A stretch of DNA of 64,000 nt, taken from positions 71,969-135,968 of the forward strand of contig JAGVER010000007.1 of NCBI GenBank assembly GCA_020058085.1, given 5' to 3'. This DNA comes from Candidatus Omnitrophota bacterium (GTDB lineage Bacteria; Omnitrophota; Gorgyraeia; Gygaellales; Profunditerraquicolaceae). Within the stretch, counting starts at the first letter, position 1, and every line of letters starts with the position of its first letter. Below are positions 775-35,797 of the stretch, piece by piece. The notes below the pieces were generated by a model. That model searched no databases. It was not told where the DNA came from and saw only the letters and a program-made list of their open reading frames with translations. Made by a program: the position numbers and the translations under genes.

Positions 775-975
775 ATGGCAAAAAAGCAAAAGTTTAAACC
801 AAGAATTTCAAAAGTGAAACTTCAGCCGGAACAAGCAGTTTTAGCTTGTACTTGCTATGATACGGGTTTCACACCTGGAAGTACGCCTTTTGGTGCGATG
901 CAGGGTTGCTATAGAAATACAAAAACCATTGTAACAACTATATACAATTATGCTTCTAACGCATCCTCTAGTTAG
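775..975 (+). CDS. 66-aa candidate precursor peptide / small basic protein, family not recognised
   Basis: AGGGAGGA SD lies 6 nt before the ATG. Residues 1-16 carry 7 Lys/Arg. The C-terminal 42 residues carry 3 Cys, 4 Tyr and 8 Thr and end in ASNASSS. The stop codon sits in a small hairpin (971-976/989-994). Confidence 0.5.
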   Translation: MAKKQKFKPRISKVKLQPEQAVLACTCYDTGFTPGSTPFGAMQGCYRNTKTIVTTIYNYASNASSS

Positions 976-2314: not shown

Positions 2315-3184
2315 ATGGAAAAGGCGATTTTTATTTCAAGAATTAAGCAACTGAAATTTATTAAACCAGACTATGCCAGAATTTATTATGGAAACGAATT
2401 TTGTGAAAGGTTAATATCTTCTCCGAGCCTCTTAAAAGAGGTTTTGTTTTACGCGCAAAAAAATAATTTGAACTTTACCTTCGTCACTCCCTATGTCACT
2501 GATCTTGGTTTAAAAAAAATAAATTCACTATTTGAATTATTATACCGGTTTCAAAATAGTTGTGAAGTTGTTTTTAATGATTGGGGGGTATTTGATCTAG
2601 CTAGGAGTGAATATCCAGCTTTTACTTTAGCTTTGGGCAGGTTGCTGGTTAAACAGAAAAGAGGGCCCAGGTTGATAGAGTTATTAAAACGAAAGATCAA
2701 AGCCCGCTTTATCAAGGATAAAAATGGCGGCAAAGTTAAACAAATTCTTATTCAAAAAAAACTTCCGCTATCTTTGGATGATTATTATAAAGGCGCAAAT
2801 ATATCAAGCAGTACTATTATTCATGATTTCTTAATTAGCCATGGGGTAAAAAGAATCGAGATGGATAACGTCGCGCAGGGTTTGTATTTAGGATTACCGC
2901 AAAATAAAATATCAGTTTCTCTCTACCTACCGTATGTATATATTACTACAACTTTTTTTTGCCCCACAGCCGGCTGTGCCGCAAACAAAAATAATCCGTT
3001 AAAAATAAAGAAGTGCGGGCGAGAGTGCCAAAGGTACGTTTTTAAATTAACACATAAAAGTATGCCTAAAACCATATACTTAAAAGGAAACACACAGTTT
3101 TATATTAATAAAAAATTGTCCATTAGCAGTTTAGCGAAATCTCCGGTTAACAGGATTGTTTATTTTCCGGAATTGGTTGTTTAA
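2315..3184 (+). CDS. U32-related small subunit, UbiV-like (copy 1)
   Basis: RIYYGNEFCERL near the N-terminus plus a C-terminal Cys cluster FFCPTAGCAANKNNPLKIKKCGRECQRY. This is the UbiV/YhbV pattern of one N-terminal Cys plus a C-terminal Cys cluster. It starts 16 nt after the large subunit. Confidence 0.65.
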   Translation: MEKAIFISRIKQLKFIKPDYARIYYGNEFCERLISSPSLLKEVLFYAQKNNLNFTFVTPYVTDLGLKKINSLFELLYRFQNSCEVVFNDWGVFDLARSEYPAFTLALGRLLVKQKRGPRLIELLKRKIKARFIKDKNGGKVKQILIQKKLPLSLDDYYKGANISSSTIIHDFLISHGVKRIEMDNVAQGLYLGLPQNKISVSLYLPYVYITTTFFCPTAGCAANKNNPLKIKKCGRECQRYVFKLTHKSMPKTIYLKGNTQFYINKKLSISSLAKSPVNRIVYFPELVV

Positions 3185-3204: not shown

Positions 3205-4110
3205 ATGCAAATATTAAGAATCCAAGAGATTTACTCTAATAGATTCAAAAGGCAACAAAGGATAAAAGAATTGCAATATCATGCTGGCGGGAACTGTGTG
3301 CATGTAGGAAAGATATCTCCGGGGTGTAAACCTTGTTTTACGTCTACTAAGCATATTAATCTAACTGTCGGAATCAAATGCAATTTAAAGTGTGACTATT
3401 GTACTTCCGATGATAATATCTGTGATTTTAAGAATCCTCTAGATAAGGCTATGAGGGCTAATATAACATTAAAAGTTTTGTCAGGAAAATCCCTAATTAG
3501 TGCAGTTTCTTTCACCGGTGGAGGAGAGCCGTTGTTATATCTGAAAACTATAGTTAAAAACATGAAGTTTTTTCATTCATTAGAGCAATGGATGAAGAAA
3601 AAACCATGGTATTATCTCTATACAAATGGATTACTTATAAATGATGTTTTGTTAGCGAGATTAAAGGATTTAGGTTTTGATGAAATTAGGGTCCATTTAG
3701 GCGCATCCAATTTTTCTAGTGCAGTTTATAAGAATGTAGAGAAGGCCGCAGCTTATTTTAAAGCGGTATCAATAGAGACTCCTGCTTGGCCTTTGCATAG
3801 AGGAAAGCTTTTCGAGATGTTGCCAGTTATTGATTCAATTGGTATCAAACATCTTAATATAGGAGAAATAGAAATAAACCGTTTTAATATTAAGAGGATT
3901 TTAAAAGTAATGCCTGATGCCAAAGTGCACCAGTGTTTCGGTTTGCATCTATACGATGGCGGGCTCGTCTATGATCTTATAGAAGAAATAGTAAAAAGGA
4001 AATACTCTTATTCAGTTATTGATTGTAGTTGTTTTGTGAAAACTATTCAACGCGCTGGGGCTAAGGACGTTTATTGTGAAAAGGGAGAAGATTTATGCAA
4101 GCAATACTAG
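3205..4110 (+). CDS. radical SAM enzyme
   Basis: GIKCNLKCDYCTS is the CxxxCxxC motif and FTGGGEPLL is the glycine-rich SAM motif. Extra Cys at the N-terminus (CVHVGKISPGCKPC) and C-terminus (DCSCF..YCEKGEDLC) could ligate an auxiliary cluster. I recognise no SPASM pattern. Confidence 0.75.
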   Translation: MQILRIQEIYSNRFKRQQRIKELQYHAGGNCVHVGKISPGCKPCFTSTKHINLTVGIKCNLKCDYCTSDDNICDFKNPLDKAMRANITLKVLSGKSLISAVSFTGGGEPLLYLKTIVKNMKFFHSLEQWMKKKPWYYLYTNGLLINDVLLARLKDLGFDEIRVHLGASNFSSAVYKNVEKAAAYFKAVSIETPAWPLHRGKLFEMLPVIDSIGIKHLNIGEIEINRFNIKRILKVMPDAKVHQCFGLHLYDGGLVYDLIEEIVKRKYSYSVIDCSCFVKTIQRAGAKDVYCEKGEDLCKQY

Positions 4111-4115
4111 TTTAG

Positions 4116-4985
4116 ATGAAAATCAGAACCGCGATAAAAAAAATCCTTGAAGTAACTGAGGATAACACATCAGCCGATGTCCTGCTCTGCAAGTCTATCT
4201 TGTTAAAAATAATAAATAACTTTGGCGATCAAAATGTGGAAGAAGTATCTATGTCAAGAATCGCTCATTTTGTAAGTAAAGAGCTAGGATTGGGGGATAG
4301 TTATATACATAAAATACTAGCTAAAGAAAAGAGATATCACTGGGAAAGAGCTTATCATAACCGTTATATTGAGCAAAGGCCTATTCGTCTACCATGGGAG
4401 ATCAGTAAGCCTACTTATTTTTTAGCAGAGTTATTTGAAAATAAGGATTTTGTTCCTCGCCGTGTGTTGGAATTAGGTAGTGGAATCGGAAGAGACGCCA
4501 TCTTTATGGCTAAGAAAGGTAGCGAGGTTTATGCTGTGGATATTTCTTACATTGCTACTAAGATTGCAATAGATTCGGCTAAGAAAGCCAAAGTCAAATG
4601 TAAATTTTTTAATAGAGATATATTTAAATTGAATTTCAAGAGTGGGTATTTCGATCTTATTTTTGATCGAGGGTGTTTTCATCACATACCATTCTTTTTG
4701 CACGATGAATATATTAAATTAGTCAATAGGTTTCTAAGCTCAAAGGGGCGTTTTTATCTCTTATGCCATAGGCAGCAAAACTTATATGAGAATGGTCTTT
4801 ACCCGTTTTTAGGTAGATTGACGTGGTTATTGAATTATCTTTTAAAAAATCAGTTCGAGATATATTTTACCAAGAATGACATTAAGTTAACTTTCCGAGA
4901 TAAATTTAAGATAATAAAGATGGATAGTTTTCAGGAAAAAACAGGTGATAATTTGTACTCTTGTTTTATGCAAAAACGTTCTTAA
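4116..4985 (+). CDS. class I SAM-dependent methyltransferase with N-terminal extension
   Basis: VLELGSGIGRDAIFMAKKG (motif I), VYAVDIS (acidic motif II) and DLIFDRGCFHH. About 95 residues precede the Rossmann core. Confidence 0.7.
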   Translation: MKIRTAIKKILEVTEDNTSADVLLCKSILLKIINNFGDQNVEEVSMSRIAHFVSKELGLGDSYIHKILAKEKRYHWERAYHNRYIEQRPIRLPWEISKPTYFLAELFENKDFVPRRVLELGSGIGRDAIFMAKKGSEVYAVDISYIATKIAIDSAKKAKVKCKFFNRDIFKLNFKSGYFDLIFDRGCFHHIPFFLHDEYIKLVNRFLSSKGRFYLLCHRQQNLYENGLYPFLGRLTWLLNYLLKNQFEIYFTKNDIKLTFRDKFKIIKMDSFQEKTGDNLYSCFMQKRS

Positions 4986-4986
4986 T

Positions 4987-6060
4987 ATGAAAAAAGGTTG
5001 CTTTAACATTTTAGCGCCATTTTCAGCAATTCATGATGTACAAGTATTAAAGGACGCTGGGGTAGATGAACTTTATTGCGGCTATATTACGGAAGATCTG
5101 AAAAACAAATGGCCCTTAGCATTTAATATTCTAAATAGACGCGGGGAAGGGAGTAGTTTTGATAATTATGCTGTATTCAAAGAAGCGATATCGCAAGCGT
5201 ATAAATATAATCTCCCTGTCTATCTGACTCTAAATGGATTGTATACTTCTCAGCAGTATCCCTTATTGCTAAGTCTAGTAAATAATATACAATCATTACC
5301 TGGGATAAAAGGGATTATCGTTGCAGATATTGGGCTGTTGTTATACTTGAAGAAAAGTAAATTCAAGAAAGAAATTCATATCAGCACTATAGCGGGTTGT
5401 TTTAATTCACTAACGGCTGATTTTTATAAAGAACTAGGCGCTAATAGAGTAATTTTAGATAGGCAGCTAACAGTTGAAGAGATAAAAGATATAATCTCAA
5501 GAATTAAATCTGACATTGATATTGAGATCCTCATTATAAGAGAAAATTGTGGAGGTTTTATAGATAGCTTATGTACTTTCTTGCATTGTTCAGAACAACT
5601 TGAATTAAATACCGAAACAATAAAAAAGAACGTTTCTTTAATAAAGGCTTACGATACCGAGATCTGTGATTTGGGATGCGAATTTTATTTCAAAAAATTA
5701 GCAAATGGTAATTTTGAGACATTTGATTCTCTAACCGAGTTAAGCAAGCCGATGAATCTTAAGTATGATCGGGACAAACATCATGGGTTTGGTTGTAGGA
5801 TATGTGATTTATATGATCTAAAAGAATATCCGATAAAGAGCCTAAAGATAGTAGGAAGAGGGAAAAGTTCCCAGGAGATTTCTAAATTTGTTAAACTTTT
5901 ATTACGGGTTTTAAACAATTTAAAACAGGCTGATATTTCGAAATCAGAATTTCAGTCTAAATGTAAAGCTTTATTCTCAAAGGTAGCTTTTAATGGAAAA
6001 AAAATGTGTTCTAACTTTGATTGTTATTTTTCCAACTCCCTCGTAAAAAATGAAAAATAG
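4987..6060 (+). CDS. peptidase-U32-family Fe-S protein, UbiU-like large subunit (copy 2)
   Basis: The ATG at 4987 lies 1 nt after the upstream stop; the ORF-track start at 4945 would overlap the methyltransferase. Motifs: GVDELYCGY, LPVYLTLNGL, IIVADIGLL, HISTIAGCFN, RVILDRQLT, CGGFIDSLCTFLHC, SLKIVGRG. Confidence 0.75.
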   Translation: MKKGCFNILAPFSAIHDVQVLKDAGVDELYCGYITEDLKNKWPLAFNILNRRGEGSSFDNYAVFKEAISQAYKYNLPVYLTLNGLYTSQQYPLLLSLVNNIQSLPGIKGIIVADIGLLLYLKKSKFKKEIHISTIAGCFNSLTADFYKELGANRVILDRQLTVEEIKDIISRIKSDIDIEILIIRENCGGFIDSLCTFLHCSEQLELNTETIKKNVSLIKAYDTEICDLGCEFYFKKLANGNFETFDSLTELSKPMNLKYDRDKHHGFGCRICDLYDLKEYPIKSLKIVGRGKSSQEISKFVKLLLRVLNNLKQADISKSEFQSKCKALFSKVAFNGKKMCSNFDCYFSNSLVKNEK

Positions 6061-6886
6061 CATAGAGAAGGCAATCTTTACAAATCACTTTAAAGACGTT
6101 GGCGATATTTACCAGAGAATATATTTTGGCAATGAATTTTGTGAAAATTTGATTCCTACGTTAGGGCTGATGAAATCATGGGTTAGCTTTGCAAAGTTAA
6201 AAAACAAGGAGCTAACGTTTGTTACTCCGTTTGTAACTAATCTGGGTATTGAAAAGCTTAAATATCTATTAGCGTTTCTAAATAAACAAAAAAGCTGTGA
6301 AGTCGTCTTTAACGATTGGGGAGTATTTAAGTTGATAAGAGATAACTTTATAAATATAACTCCAGTTTTGGGTAGGCTTCTATCTAGACAACGGCGAGAT
6401 CCCCGTTTAATAGATATAATTAATGGAAGACAGAAGATAAGAGAAGTTTATTCTCCTAAAGAACAAGAAAAGTTCGTGATTTTACCTAAGAAAATACCTA
6501 GTAGCTTAGCAAACTATTATAGAACTTGTGTCCTAGGTGTTTCGGCATTCCAGCAGTTTATATTATCTTGCGGGATAAACAGAGTTGAAATCGATAATTT
6601 AGTCTGGAAAATGCGATTAAAATTAAATAAAAGATTAAAGGTCTCTATTTACGTTCCCTTTGGCTATGTTTCTACAACAAGGTCCTGTGGTAAACTAACC
6701 TTGACATATAAACCGTGTCAAAAAGAGTGTAAAGATTATTTTATTCGGCTAGGAAGCGAATCGTTGTTATCTAACGTTTACGCCATCGGTAACACAGTAT
6801 TTTATAAAAATGCTGAACCCTCGGTAGGTTATTTAAAAGATTTAGGTATCGATAGGGTTATTTATCAACCAAGGTTGCCATTTTAG
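6050..6886 (+). CDS. U32-related small subunit, UbiV-like (copy 2)
   Basis: RIYFGNEFCENL plus TRSCGKLTLTYKPCQKECKDY. The start overlaps the upstream stop by 11 nt (ATGAAAAATAG), which suggests translational coupling. Confidence 0.65.
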   Translation: MKNSIEKAIFTNHFKDVGDIYQRIYFGNEFCENLIPTLGLMKSWVSFAKLKNKELTFVTPFVTNLGIEKLKYLLAFLNKQKSCEVVFNDWGVFKLIRDNFINITPVLGRLLSRQRRDPRLIDIINGRQKIREVYSPKEQEKFVILPKKIPSSLANYYRTCVLGVSAFQQFILSCGINRVEIDNLVWKMRLKLNKRLKVSIYVPFGYVSTTRSCGKLTLTYKPCQKECKDYFIRLGSESLLSNVYAIGNTVFYKNAEPSVGYLKDLGIDRVIYQPRLPF

Positions 6887-6985
6887 CAGTAACATTAGAT
6901 CAGAGAGAATTATAGGGCTCTAGGAAGTCAAAACGTCAGGGGAGTATACTACGGAATGTTTTAAATGCCTAGGTGGGAATATAAA

Positions 6986-8653
6986 ATGAAGATATTTGGT
7001 ACGCTTGACCAAGACATATTTCATGTTGCTTCATATATTACTCCGGGTAAAAGAATGATATATGGTGCTTGGGTAGGGGAAGAAAGTTTTTACAACGGGT
7101 TGCTTACTTGGGGTAGTTTTGACGAGTACCACTTTTTTGTTAATTCAACAAAAGCAGGGAATATTTTTAAAAAGAAACTATTGCTTTTAAATATTAATAC
7201 GGATAAAGTAAGGATAATTGATATTAAAGAATTAGCCGTATATCTAAAAAAGATAGAATATACGATTTTCTTTACGCATAGAGCTGATATCTCAAATTTG
7301 GTTTATCTTCGCGCTAAGTATGCGAGAAAATGTTTTCCTGTATGTGGTTTGGTTCTTGATGCCATAAGTTATCCTGAAGCATTTAGGCAAACCTTTTTAA
7401 ACAATATCATAGCTGACGTACGACCTTTTGATTCAATTATTTGTCCTAGCCGCGCAGTTCTAAAAGTTATCAGGAAACATAATAAATTATTAAGTTTATC
7501 TTTTAAAGAAAATTTACTTTCAGGTAACCGTTATAACGGGAGACTAGACGTTTTGCCATTCGGTATAGATATTAACGATTACGGCGCATTAAACAAATTA
7601 AAGGCTAGAAGAGAACTCGGCTTAGATAAGGATAAGGTTATAGTTCTTTATTTTGGTCGTTTTTCTCTTTACGATAAAGCAGATCTATACCCTCTTTTGC
7701 TTGCTTTCAAGGAGGTTTTGAAAGAAAAAAGAAATGCTATGTTATTATTGGCTGGAATTGATCTCCAGCATGAATATGGCGAAAAGCTTAAACGCGTAGC
7801 CAAAGAAATGGGGATATTGCCCCATACAAAATTTATACTTCACAATTTTTTAGATAAGAAAAATCTATTGTTCACTGCGGCTGATATATTTGTTTCTCCC
7901 AGTGATAACATTCAGGAAACATTTGGTTTAACAGTTCTTGAAGCTATGGCCACAAGTTTGCCGGTAGTTGTTTCGGACTGGGATGGTTATAAGGATACGG
8001 TAATTCATAATAAAACTGGTTTCCGAATTCCTACTTACTGCTCCGATTATAATATCGAAGCTGTCTATCCCGGGTATTCAGCTTTTAAATCTTGGCAGCT
8101 GGAACATCTTTATTTTGCGCAGTCAGTTTGCGTTGATGTTAAAAGGTTTGTTGAATATTTATCAATTCTAGTGAAAGATAAAACATTGCGTTTAACCTTT
8201 GGTCATAACGCCAGAAATAATGTTTTGCAGAAATACGATTGGAGAGTCCTGATACCTGAATATGAAAAGCTATGGGAAAGATTATCTCGTTTATCCGACA
8301 ACGCCAAAATAAACAGAAAGATAAGCCAATATTTTTCACTAAAATATTTCGATTCTTTCAGTCATTACCCCACCCGTATTCTAAATAAGAAAACTAGGGT
8401 AAGTATTAGCGAGAATGGTACTTTATTTTTGAAATTTAGAAAACTATCTTTTAAAATCGAGAAAGAATTGCTCGATATTCTTTCGTTTAGGGTAATTTTT
8501 ATAATACTCTCTTTACTTTCAAGGGAAAACGCCGTTTCCATAGGAAAGATCGAAAAATATCTAAAGAGTAATTTTAACGTGCAAGTGTCACTTGTTAGAT
8601 ACCATATAATGTGGTTATTGAAGAAAGATTTAATTAGGAGGTTAAGTGGTTAA
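6986..8653 (+). CDS. GT-B (GT4-like) glycosyltransferase with extra C-terminal winged-helix-like region
   Basis: VIVLYFGRFSLYDKADL, LLLAG and the E-x7-E motif ETFGLTVLEAMATSLPVVVSDWDG. The start at 6986 (AGGTGGG 8 nt upstream) is preferred over 6965. About 110 C-terminal residues lie beyond the GT fold. Confidence 0.75.
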   Translation: MKIFGTLDQDIFHVASYITPGKRMIYGAWVGEESFYNGLLTWGSFDEYHFFVNSTKAGNIFKKKLLLLNINTDKVRIIDIKELAVYLKKIEYTIFFTHRADISNLVYLRAKYARKCFPVCGLVLDAISYPEAFRQTFLNNIIADVRPFDSIICPSRAVLKVIRKHNKLLSLSFKENLLSGNRYNGRLDVLPFGIDINDYGALNKLKARRELGLDKDKVIVLYFGRFSLYDKADLYPLLLAFKEVLKEKRNAMLLLAGIDLQHEYGEKLKRVAKEMGILPHTKFILHNFLDKKNLLFTAADIFVSPSDNIQETFGLTVLEAMATSLPVVVSDWDGYKDTVIHNKTGFRIPTYCSDYNIEAVYPGYSAFKSWQLEHLYFAQSVCVDVKRFVEYLSILVKDKTLRLTFGHNARNNVLQKYDWRVLIPEYEKLWERLSRLSDNAKINRKISQYFSLKYFDSFSHYPTRILNKKTRVSISENGTLFLKFRKLSFKIEKELLDILSFRVIFIILSLLSRENAVSIGKIEKYLKSNFNVQVSLVRYHIMWLLKKDLIRRLSG

Positions 8654-10394
8654 GATTTTAGAAAAAGAGCGCGCATTATTTGTGAGGTTTATTAAGTACG
8701 CCCTTACCTATCGTAAGAGCTGGTTAACGGTAATTATGCTTGAGGCTTTGATTTCATTGCTAGGATTGATTAATCCCTATTTGACTAAATTGGTAGTTGA
8801 TAATGCGATAGGTAACAAGAATCTGAAGGTTTTTATCATTCTCGCTTTGATTGGTGGCAGTATTTTTATCTTAAGCGGATTGCTTAGCTCTTGGTCGAGT
8901 TTCCTAGAGCGCTACATCAAACTAAAAGTTAATTTTGATCTTAATCGGGATATTTTTCGGCGCATCCAGAGTTTCTCCTTAAACTGGTTCCAGGACAAAT
9001 CTACCGGAGAGCATATGTATAAGATAAGTTACGATGTGGACCGCGTAACCGAATTCATCACGTTTATCCCCACACGGGCCGTAGCCATCTTTCCGAAATT
9101 ACTGGTTACCCTTGTAATTATCTTTTATTTCAACTGGAAGATCTCTGTTTTATCGCTATCTCTGGCGCCAATTCTTTATCTCCCGCCGTATTATTTTAGC
9201 CGTAAGATGCGTTTGGTCTGGCACGCCCTAGCCGAAAATTCGCAAGAAATATTTAAGAATCTAAACGAAGTGTTTTCTCATATTCAGCTAATCAAGTCTT
9301 TTGGCAGGGAGGCCCACGCTATACATGTCTACTTAAAGAAATTAATTGTCAATATAAAAATAAGCACAAAAAACCAGAGATTAGAGATCGTCGGAGGTTT
9401 CGCTGCTTCTTTATCTAGTAAGCTAGTTACCGGTTTGATAGTTTTTTACGGCGGTTATCAAGTGATAAAAGGGCAGATGACTCTAGGTACTCTTACGGCG
9501 ATAATGGTTTACCTGAGCCAGTTAATATCCTTACAAGGCCAGATAGCTATGTTTTTCCAGGATAGTGTTTCCGGGTTTGTTTCCTGTGAAAGAATAGCCA
9601 AGATATTGAATGAGGAGGATAGGATAAGAGAGTTACCCGGAGCTAGGAAAGCGGATTTCAAAAGCTATAGTATATCTTTTGACCAGGTTAGCTTCGGCTA
9701 CCGTAAGGATAAATATATTATAAAAGATTTAAGCTTCCAAATTGAAAGCGGAAAACATATTGCATTGGTAGGTCCTTCCGGATGTGGTAAGACGACATTG
9801 TTGAACTTAATATTACGGCTTTACGATCCCTGGCATGGGCAAATATCTATAGATGGTGTTGATCTAAAGGGGTTAGAGATTAACTCATTAAAGCAACGGA
9901 TCGGGGTTGTGCTGCAGGAACCATTTTTGTGGAATGATTCTATAAAAAATAATATCTGTTATGGTATAGAAAGTGTTTCGGGAGCGCAAGTAGATGAGGC
10001 CGCGCGCATTACAGGCGTTGATGAACTTGTGCGTAACCTGCCTTTAGGGTATGATACGGTTATCGGCGAAAATGCCTGTAAGATTTCCGAAGGCCAGAAA
10101 CAGCGTATTGCTATCGCCCGGGCTCTTATTAAGAGTCCGCGGATTCTAATCTTTGATGAGGCGTTTTCTTCACTTGATTCAGCCAGCGAAAATAAAATAT
10201 TGGCAACGATCAAAGATGTTTACAAGGATATAACCATAATTATTGTTTCACATCGGCTTTCTTCGCTCTCTAAGGCAGAAATCATATATTATCTTAAACA
10301 CCCAGAGACAATAATCATAGATAGTTTTAAAAATTTACTGCTTAATGATAATGAATTCCCTAAAGTTTTTGTCGGGCAAAACGAGGAATTTTAG
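8646..10394 (+). CDS. ABC exporter, fused transmembrane and ATPase domains (MsbA/ABCB-like)
   Basis: Hydrophobic N-terminal half, then Walker A GPSGCGKTT, signature ISEGQKQR and Walker B ILIFDEA. GTG start with AGGAGG 6 nt upstream; it overlaps the GT stop by 8 nt. No N-terminal C39 peptidase domain. Confidence 0.85.
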   Translation: MVKILEKERALFVRFIKYALTYRKSWLTVIMLEALISLLGLINPYLTKLVVDNAIGNKNLKVFIILALIGGSIFILSGLLSSWSSFLERYIKLKVNFDLNRDIFRRIQSFSLNWFQDKSTGEHMYKISYDVDRVTEFITFIPTRAVAIFPKLLVTLVIIFYFNWKISVLSLSLAPILYLPPYYFSRKMRLVWHALAENSQEIFKNLNEVFSHIQLIKSFGREAHAIHVYLKKLIVNIKISTKNQRLEIVGGFAASLSSKLVTGLIVFYGGYQVIKGQMTLGTLTAIMVYLSQLISLQGQIAMFFQDSVSGFVSCERIAKILNEEDRIRELPGARKADFKSYSISFDQVSFGYRKDKYIIKDLSFQIESGKHIALVGPSGCGKTTLLNLILRLYDPWHGQISIDGVDLKGLEINSLKQRIGVVLQEPFLWNDSIKNNICYGIESVSGAQVDEAARITGVDELVRNLPLGYDTVIGENACKISEGQKQRIAIARALIKSPRILIFDEAFSSLDSASENKILATIKDVYKDITIIIVSHRLSSLSKAEIIYYLKHPETIIIDSFKNLLLNDNEFPKVFVGQNEEF

Positions 10395-35356: not shown

Positions 35357-35429
35357 GCTGGAGTAGCTCAGTTGGCAGAGCACGTCCTTGGTAAGGACGG
35401 GGTCACGAGTTCAATTCTCGTCTCCAGCT
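35357..35429 (+). tRNA. tRNA-Thr (anticodon GGU)
   Basis: Acceptor GCTGGAG/CTCCAGC, D-arm AGCTCAGTTGGCAGAGC, anticodon loop CTTGGTAAG and T-arm GGTTCAATTC-like GAGTTCAATTCTC. Confidence 0.9.
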
Positions 35430-35726: not shown

Positions 35727-35797
35727 AGGGGCGTCGGTTAATGGCAAACCAACGGTCTCCAAAACCGTGACTGCAGGTTCAAGTCCTGCCGCTCCTG
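35727..35797 (+). tRNA. tRNA-Trp (anticodon CCA)
   Basis: Acceptor AGGGGCG/CGCTCCT (one G-T pair), anticodon stem-loop ACGGTCTCCAAAACCGT and T-arm CAGGTTCAAGTCCTG. It occupies the usual position before secE. Confidence 0.85.

Follow-up and report, generated by a model that had tools for sequence, protein, structure and literature searches.

PqqD domains are dedicated peptide-recognition modules. In the lasso peptides paeninodin (PadeK) and pseudomycoidin (PsmK), the C-terminal Ser is phosphorylated by kinases of the HprK type, and a nucleotidyltransferase adds a hexose to lasso precursors after phosphorylation (PMC6993621). For U32 proteins, the one activity implicated is a hydroxylation that depends on prephenate but not on O2, with a quinone precursor and RNA bases as substrates (PMC6747719, PMC10990095); it has so far been neither assayed in vitro nor demonstrated directly (PMC10990095). 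Here we analyze a 66-codon open reading frame (ORF) that lies between a gene for an HprK-like kinase and a U32 gene in a 64,000-nt stretch of DNA (hereafter the window; 39% GC) from a Candidatus Omnitrophota bacterium, contig JAGVER010000007.1. The Omnitrophota are uncultivated and largely anaerobic bacteria, abundant in anoxic sediments and groundwater, whose chemistry is little known.

Its homologues and the selection on its codons show that the ORF is a real gene. Judged from its sequence family and the genes that accompany it, the encoded peptide is very probably (roughly 85%) the precursor of a ribosomally synthesized peptide that is modified post-translationally (RiPP), made up of a leader and a core. 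The pathway appears to be widespread in Candidatus Omnitrophota and is apparently undescribed, while any particular modification chemistry is much less certain than the precursor role itself.

The 66-codon gene and its family

The gene occupies positions 775-975 of the forward strand, the strand of all the cluster features given below, and consists of an ATG start and 66 codons plus a stop, with the product MAKKQKFKPRISKVKLQPEQAVLACTCYDTGFTPGSTPFGAMQGCYRNTKTIVTTIYNYASNASSS. The original prediction, made from the DNA letters alone, had reported this ORF and its composition, and on re-reading the sequence we find both as described: seven of residues 1-16 are Lys or Arg, and from C25 onward the peptide contains three Cys (25, 27 and 45), four Tyr, eight Thr and a terminal SSS. 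ORFs of 40-90 residues are common in the window, many of them spurious, and a length of 66 residues is by itself not above chance at this GC content. We accept the ORF as a real gene because of its homology and purifying selection, not because of its size. A six-frame motif search of the window found no second copy of the peptide.

A word-indexed search returned an identical database entry, annotated as 'hypothetical protein' (NCBI/JGI). The nearest homologue is an ORF on a 1.4-kb contig (L001; related loci are designated in this way below), with 76% identity at the amino acid level but 71% at the nucleotide level. Differences between the two ORFs distribute over the three codon positions as 14/9/35, giving pS = 0.72 (saturated), pN = 0.16 and an omega of ~0.08 overall. 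Constraint is uneven along the peptide: pN is 0.08 over residues 1-51 and 0.04 over residues 1-24, omega is ~0.05 over residues 25-51, and it reaches ~0.8 in the last 15 residues (52-66). The N-terminal three-quarters of the peptide is strongly constrained and the tail is free to evolve.

The original prediction was to be given up if the ORF were absent from related loci or unselected there; it survived, the ORF being both present and constrained. A chance ORF in AT-rich intergenic DNA, the reading that the frequency of ORFs of 40-90 residues would favor, is ruled out by purifying selection and family homology, and we put its probability close to nil: the low omega comes with saturated synonymous sites, hundreds of homologues share the same architecture, and the Shine-Dalgarno sequence is conserved.

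An exhaustive HMMER search with a two-sequence profile retrieved 707 cluster representatives at E <= 1e-3, all of 63-99 residues; these are clusters at 50% identity, and the family comprises at least that many of them. A 58-member profile gave 856 clusters at 90% identity, and a pattern scan of metagenome contigs (PEQAVLxCxC) yielded 227 further coding sites. An earlier metagenome scan, run with poor patterns from the two-sequence alignment, had found no relatives, and the sole match of a genome-contig scan (L002, a Tepidisphaeraceae metagenome-assembled genome, MAG) proved to be spurious, an antisense translation of a high-GC gene. All members with a source name come from Candidatus Omnitrophota/Omnitrophica and all are annotated 'hypothetical protein'; no Pfam or NCBIfam model matches the peptide, whether tested singly or over 58 members.

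The logo of 260 sequences starts M-[PSA]-[KR]-K-[P]-K-F-[KR]-P-x-I-T-R-[VI]-K-L-N-P-E-Q-A-V-L-[AST]-C-x-C-[YFW]-[DNS]-x-G and continues into a hypervariable, Gly/Ser/Thr-rich stretch that holds the third invariant Cys and, 4-6 residues further on, an enrichment in K or R. F7, P9, L16, Q20, A21, L23, C25, C27 and C45 are invariant in the family, and the residue after CxC (Y28 in the window) is aromatic in 97% of members. In 86% of members CxC comes after 24 residues. Counted back from CxC in the 260 sequences, conservation is 67-100% from -24 to -2, V stands at -3 in 100%, and -1 is occupied by A, S or T in 81%. The C-terminus is rich in small residues and closes with Ser in 197 of 211 sequences (93%) or with Thr in 12 (6%). 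The window peptide has C25, C27, Y28, C45, K50 and S66 as in the family, and its leader departs only slightly from it (Q17 for N, S12 for T, K13 for R).

Across the family, therefore, a short ORF combines conserved positions 1-28 (67-100% in the 260 members) with a hypervariable remainder. On conservation we assign residues 1-24 (MAKKQKFKPRISKVKLQPEQAVLA; 775-846) as the putative leader and residues 25-66 (847-972) as the putative core. The latter opens with C25-T-C27-Y28 (847-858), followed by a variable middle and a variable tail; its landmarks are C45 (907-909), K50 at +5 from C45, and the C-terminal S66 (970-972). The bipartite composition of the original prediction holds in this comparison, but the conserved block reaches to CxC[Y] (residue 28) and not just to residue 24.

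Conserved partners and the proposed pathway

To place the peptide in its genomic context, window and reference proteins were mapped by tblastn onto 80 peptide loci, and presence was counted on the 18 loci of at least 10 kb. A radical S-adenosylmethionine (SAM) enzyme of the SPASM type is found in 15 of these 18 loci, PqqD and the HprK-like kinase in 13 each, an ATP-binding cassette (ABC) exporter in 12, an S24/S26-like peptidase in 6 and a U32/partner pair in 5. The conserved partners of the family are PqqD, three SPASM radical SAM enzymes, the kinase, the S24/S26-like peptidase and the ABC exporter, and most of them would lie upstream of the window. The neighbors that the original prediction saw in the window (U32 pairs, a small radical SAM protein, a methyltransferase and a glycosyltransferase) turn out to be accessory, U32 pairs being present in 5 of the 18 long loci, as just mentioned.

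In related loci the peptide gene typically lies between PqqD and the first radical SAM gene. The short contig L001 carries, in this order, an S24-like peptidase, PqqD, the peptide and the start of a radical SAM gene. L003-L005 show PqqD, (radical SAM), peptide, two radical SAM genes, a ScmC-family protein, a further radical SAM gene, the ABC exporter and an NTP_transf_5 gene. The kinase-then-peptide order of the window is seen again in L047, L027, L020 and L043, where a kinase gene immediately precedes a peptide gene. The three conserved radical SAM enzymes, as represented in L005, carry motifs of the SPASM type (Gx4C...CxxCx5CxxC), although the Pfam SPASM model has no match to them.

A PqqD-type RiPP recognition element (RRE) together with modifying enzymes is what we find in the relatives (the 13 and 15 of 18 above, and L001), and the window itself shows the kinase, accessory enzymes and the ABC exporter. 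Because the first gene of the window is the 3' two-thirds of the kinase gene, we place the core of the cluster upstream of position 1: the window would be the downstream half of a cluster, with PqqD, SPASM and peptidase genes expected just upstream. The near-invariant N-terminus, the hypervariable C-terminal part and the PqqD and radical SAM/SPASM neighbors together support the leader-plus-core organization that had been proposed for the peptide.

The same partners also bring to mind a peptide from which a redox cofactor is made, as PQQ is from PqqA and mycofactocin from MftA; a few of its residues would be excised and crosslinked to give an intracellular product. The conserved set does comprise a PqqD homologue and PqqE/MftC-like SPASM enzymes, the radical SAM enzymes partially match models that include those of mycofactocin and PqqE, and a fixed site of reaction could be provided by the invariant CxC[Y]. 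Such cofactor precursors are, however, highly conserved and single-copy, whereas here the core is mostly hypervariable, as the omega of the tail illustrates, and a locus may hold up to four different paralogues. The ABC exporter is moreover a core gene, and all cofactor-family matches fall far under cut-off. We consider this origin highly unlikely.

Polysaccharide-synthesis genes directly adjoin the peptide clusters in L003 (1-5742), L004 (1-4734 and 13802-15852) and L005 (1-9664), including Wzy_C, Wzz/GNVR, Poly_export, Bac_transf and several glycosyltransferases. Together with the ABC exporter and the signal-peptidase-like S24/S26 gene of the cluster, this vicinity would suit an exported and essentially unmodified peptide, a bacteriocin or signal whose N-terminus is only an export leader, while the enzymes act elsewhere, for example on a polysaccharide. 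Such an arrangement does not fit the interleaving of the peptide gene with PqqD and SPASM genes, nor the three invariant Cys and the terminal Ser/Thr, which indicate residue-specific chemistry; furthermore, the ABC protein is without a C39 peptidase domain and the leader without a double-Gly motif. Its probability is small, if marginally above that of the cofactor alternative.

Several loci contain three or four divergent precursor paralogues, interleaved with radical SAM genes and sharing the leader but not the core (L004/L042, 9619-11890; L030, 1983-10216; L014, 9612-10565; L015, 6856-10640). Orphan precursors are also found amid housekeeping genes, far from any maturase (L052, 9366-10240; L053, 10001-10200; L012, 3273-3470); their neighbors in these three long loci encode citrate synthase, PAPS reductase, ThyX, succinate dehydrogenase and a dockerin/HEAT protein. 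The orphans suggest substrates that are supplied in trans, and paralogous and orphan precursors together look like substrate families that share a single set of enzymes.

These observations also bear on whether the peptide could be a small basic protein of structural or regulatory function in the cluster, binding nucleic acid or acting as a scaffold and not itself a substrate. Its very basic N-terminus and its own strong Shine-Dalgarno sequence would be in keeping with such a role. Regulators, on the other hand, do not show hypervariability over their C-terminal two-thirds together with several divergent copies per locus and an invariant Ser at the end, and the peptide matches no protein family; we give this function about as little credence as that of a cofactor precursor. 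A modified precursor peptide remains the reading that we favor.

The C-terminal residue of the peptide acquires significance from the gene that precedes it. The HprK-like (ScmC-like) P-loop kinase is represented in the window by its 3' part (1-711), ~88 N-terminal residues being cut off by the window edge, and aligns to residues 89-305 of the ScmC-family protein of L005 with 33% identity. In an alignment with L. casei HprK/P its GKSGAGKS falls on the P-loop and its NDDR on the DD motif, and homologues with 46-57% identity are found in 25 peptide-encoding loci. The kinase gene ends 63 nt ahead of the peptide gene, whose product ends in S66. By analogy with the lasso peptide kinases, phosphorylation of the C-terminal Ser is a well-motivated prediction, and so is crosslinking of the Cys residues. 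The original prediction had already guessed at both: its kinase target at the terminal Ser gains indirect support because 93% of the family ends in Ser and the HprK-like kinase is a core gene, and its radical SAM chemistry on Cys because the three Cys are invariant across the family.

Based on these data, we propose the following sequence of events. The strong Shine-Dalgarno sequence would ensure efficient translation of the peptide, whose leader (KFKPxI[ST][KR]VKL[NQ]PEQAVL) would be bound by the PqqD protein, which would hand the core to the SPASM enzymes. These would install crosslinks, most likely thioethers from C25, C27 and C45, or alternatively C-C links via Y28 or K50. The HprK-like kinase would phosphorylate the Ser66 side chain, as PadeK and PsmK do on lasso precursors, and a GT4 enzyme may add a sugar after this phosphorylation. 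Two UbiU/UbiV-like U32 pairs, the small radical SAM protein and the methyltransferase would provide lineage-specific decorations in this genome, for which the most economical guess is O2-independent hydroxylation of aromatic side chains and then O-methylation; hydroxylation of the peptide by U32 proteins is a conjecture, and so are the O-methylation of Tyr/Phe and the glycosylation of Ser/Thr that the original prediction put forward. The leader would probably be removed past V-L-A24 by the signal-peptidase-like S24/S26 enzyme, where V occupies position -3 and position -1 holds a small residue, and the product would exit via the ABC transporter.

Several points weigh against this scheme. The boundary between leader and core is drawn from conservation only, there being no double-Gly or other established cleavage motif. 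In the 64 kb of the window tblastn finds no PqqD and no SPASM radical SAM gene, and the upstream placement of both is an extrapolation from relatives. The best NCBIfam matches of the three SPASM enzymes are scattered over many families, all far under cut-off, and the likeness of the kinase to HprK is weak (E ~0.1 against the PDB, with all NCBIfam and Pfam matches under cut-off). The peptide is likewise only a candidate substrate of the U32 pairs of the window, because a pair is present in only 5 of the 18 long loci and because another, in L084, lies in a locus with no recognizable precursor.

The most complete version of the scheme is a new RiPP class confined to Omnitrophota, with three SPASM enzymes crosslinking one invariant Cys each, a kinase phosphorylating the invariant terminal Ser, and U32 heterodimers that hydroxylate aromatic residues without O2 in a subset of clusters, followed here by O-methylation. 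As a conjunction of all these parts it is a tentative proposal, which we think rather unlikely as a whole.

Accessory genes and expression signals in the window

Two U32 pairs are encoded downstream of the peptide. The first U32-family protein (UbiU-like; 1246-2298) matches PF01136 at 2e-31, and its homologues are embedded in the peptide loci L019, L030, L057, L041, L014, L085 and L086, where U32 pairs sit between core genes. It is followed by a partner (2315-3184) with a possibly U32-like fold and a pattern of four Cys that recalls UbiV. The partner has no match in Pfam or NCBIfam, sequence searches of the PDB were empty, and profile-profile comparison of the U32 proteins with the partners was negative (probability 8.8%). 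Its AlphaFold2 model (pLDDT 87) gives as the only significant fold match in the PDB the U32 peptidase Mk0906 (5d88; E = 3.8e-4, TM 0.49-0.56). The invariant Cys of the partner are arranged as C30...C216-x17-C234-x3-C238, to be compared with the Fe-S motif of UbiV, CXnCX12CX3C (PMC6747719). The partner family counts 508 members, and the named ones are all from Omnitrophota. On these models the U32 and partner genes of the window are candidate UbiU/UbiV-like Fe-S heterodimers inside peptide clusters.

The second U32-family protein (4987-6060) matches PF01136 at 8.9e-27 and is 36% identical to the first. The mechanical ORF, from GTG 4945, overlaps the methyltransferase gene by 41 nt; ATG 4987, 2 nt past the methyltransferase stop, is the likelier start. 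Its partner (6050-6886) belongs to the same family as the first partner, with 38-39% identity. U32/partner pairs are not confined to peptide clusters, because L084 (8996-10804), which is without a recognizable precursor, holds a divergent pair amid genes for a UbiA prenyltransferase, an AMP-binding protein and several B12-radical-SAM proteins.

Between the two pairs lie a small accessory radical SAM protein without a SPASM motif (3205-4110; PF04055 at 2.6e-7) and an accessory class I SAM-dependent methyltransferase (4116-4985; Methyltransf_25, _31 and _11 matches). The former has a 55%-identical homologue beside the kinase in L086 and is missing from most loci of the family, and the latter has no homologue by tblastn in the other 80 peptide loci. 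An SGNH protein of the window is also without a counterpart in other peptide loci. The closest set of accessory genes is that of L086 (11156-13249), an Omnitrophica MAG, with identities of 54% for the kinase, 55% for the small radical SAM protein, 57% for U32 and 53% for the partner; the small ORF next in line there encodes a 79-residue Cys-rich peptide of another family, ending in GI and not in Ser.

Further downstream, the GT4 glycosyltransferase (6965-8653; Glycos_transf_1 at 2.3e-27) carries ~200 extra C-terminal residues without a domain match. In L023 the kinase and a SPASM radical SAM gene flank a homologue of 43% identity, and the glycosyltransferase may belong to the pathway. The ABC exporter (8646-10394) fuses membrane and ATPase domains without a peptidase domain; homologues with 36-54% identity are found in 16-18 peptide loci, and those of L003-L005 comprise ABC_membrane plus ABC_tran. 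Housekeeping genes follow the cluster in the window (miaB, miaA, hflX, hrcA, grpE, dnaK and dnaJ), and two tRNA genes (35357-35429 and 35727-35797) are the only Rfam matches in the 64 kb.

A 62-residue ORF in L085 (4250-4438), immediately past the gene of a ScmC-family kinase, has GSS at its end and a leader (KPKLLELVRGKPEELVLSSC) that differs from that of the family but is analogous to it; from its sequence it looks like a sister precursor family. The L085 cluster contains YcaO and TfuA-YcaO as well as PqqD, radical SAM enzymes, two U32/partner pairs and an ABC exporter.

Turning to expression, the Shine-Dalgarno sequence of the peptide gene (AGGGAGGA, 761-768) lies 6 nt ahead of the ATG, and among the cluster genes of the window only the ABC gene has a comparable one, which bears out the strong site and spacing originally described. 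AGGAGG or GGAGG precedes 47 of 83 peptide genes, so that a strong Shine-Dalgarno sequence is recurrent in the family. A promoter-like site is also present as reported (717-745), with TTGTTC (717-722), a 17-nt spacer that includes TG (737-738), and TAGAAT (740-745). Its -35 hexamer matches at 3 of 6 positions and the site falls under the threshold of a consensus scan; the window has 0.27 sites of such a relaxed class per kb and strand, with ~0.017 expected in the 63-nt intergenic gap. As a true promoter, the site is suggestive and not proven.

The hairpin said to enclose the stop codon is real, its stem being slightly longer than first described: it spans 969-996, with a 9-bp stem (969-977 with 988-996) and a 10-nt loop. 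Its folding energy is -8.2 kcal/mol (z = -2.2), and equally good folds were obtained in 7 of 200 shuffles. The hairpin is not a canonical terminator because no T-run follows it. Hairpins overlap or abut the precursor stop codon also in L001 (1152-1170) and L047 (10193-10227), both weaker, and only that of the window clearly beats shuffled sequence. It may be an element for processing or for stability, or the product of chance. The untranslated spacer of 270 nt before the first U32 gene (976-1245) has the length originally given; it does not fold significantly (z = +1.0), gives no Rfam match and contains no meaningful ORF, and Rfam and folding detect in it no riboswitch, attenuator or terminator.

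Comparison with known systems

In the literature that we searched, no paper describes this peptide family, Omnitrophota precursor peptides or the combination of HprK, PqqD and radical SAM proteins; the term 'SynChlorMet' has no match there and nothing links a U32 enzyme to RiPPs. The precursor family and the cluster architecture are new with respect to this literature. With at least 700 sequence clusters that combine a fixed leader with a hypervariable core, the family would constitute a ready-made combinatorial peptide library, served by an enzyme set that should be heterologously expressible.

From its genes, the system would work like an RRE-dependent radical SAM RiPP pathway of the sactipeptide/ranthipeptide type. 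With the radical SAM/SPASM RiPPs that depend on a PqqD-type element (sactipeptides, ranthipeptides such as SCIFF and freyrasin, and streptide-type peptides) it has in common a short precursor whose leader is conserved and whose core contains Cys, a discrete PqqD-like protein, SPASM-type auxiliary-cluster motifs in its radical SAM enzymes, and a cluster that includes a peptidase besides an ABC exporter. It differs from these classes in its three separate SPASM enzymes, in the HprK-like kinase as a core gene and in the invariant C-terminal Ser. The precursor falls into none of the named families with which it was compared (SCIFF, CcpM, PapB, AlbA, StsA/StsB and others), 3 of 58 members having a match to StsA, with E >= 0.035, and all matches of the maturases to named sactipeptide/ranthipeptide families are at least fourfold under cut-off.

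The SynChlorMet (SCM) cassette, which comprises ScmC, the PqqD-like ScmD and the radical SAM/SPASM proteins ScmE and ScmF, resembles the present clusters in its HprK-like protein of the ScmC type, its PqqD homologue and its several SPASM enzymes. The ScmC model is the best NCBIfam match of the window kinase, and precomputed Pfam annotation marks the homologues of L003-L005 as PF27840 ScmC. Against ScmC (TIGR04249) the window kinase scores 24.7 bits and its L005 homologue 24.4, with a cut-off of 125; the other scores are 57.7-66.2 bits for ScmE and 43.7-67.5 for ScmF against a cut-off of 400, and 20.5 for ScmD against 100. Membership of the cassette is rejected, all scores being far under the curated cut-offs, and the present system is a relative of it, not a member, distinguished by its three radical SAM enzymes, its identifiable precursor family and its Omnitrophota distribution. 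The family gives an SCM-like set of PqqD, SPASM and HprK-like enzymes an identifiable substrate.

Phosphorylated lasso peptides (paeninodin with PadeK; pseudomycoidin with PsmK and PsmN) show a similar arrangement, in which a kinase of the HprK family adjoins a Ser-ending precursor and an RRE of the PqqD type is present. The NTP_transf_5 nucleotidyltransferase of some loci (L003-L005, L085) may be compared with PsmN of the psm cluster (PMC6993621). Gene and Pfam lists for L003, L004, L005, L085 and L086 contain neither a lasso cyclase (the asparagine-synthetase-like C protein) nor a B-type leader protease, and the window proteins include none either; for want of a cyclase membership of the lasso peptides is rejected. 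Unlike those systems, the present one has SPASM radical SAM maturases and a kinase that is only distantly HprK-like. C-terminal Ser phosphorylation, if true, would here be extended beyond lasso peptides.

Finally, the two pairs of the window recall UbiU-UbiV, TrhP and RlhA in that a PF01136 protein is followed by a partner that may share the U32 fold and whose Cys (one distant, then C-x17-C-x3-C) may be arranged as in UbiV. The U32 proteins score 89.4 bits against the UbiU equivalog cut-off of 440, and 74.5 against that of TrhP, 534. In contrast to UbiU-UbiV, the partner is not detectably U32 by sequence, and the known U32 substrates are a quinone precursor and RNA bases, a peptide substrate being without precedent in the literature that we searched. 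The peptide offers a tractable, soluble candidate substrate for testing U32 proteins as direct O2-independent hydroxylases and, if the proposal is true, would be the first peptide substrate of the U32 hydroxylase family.

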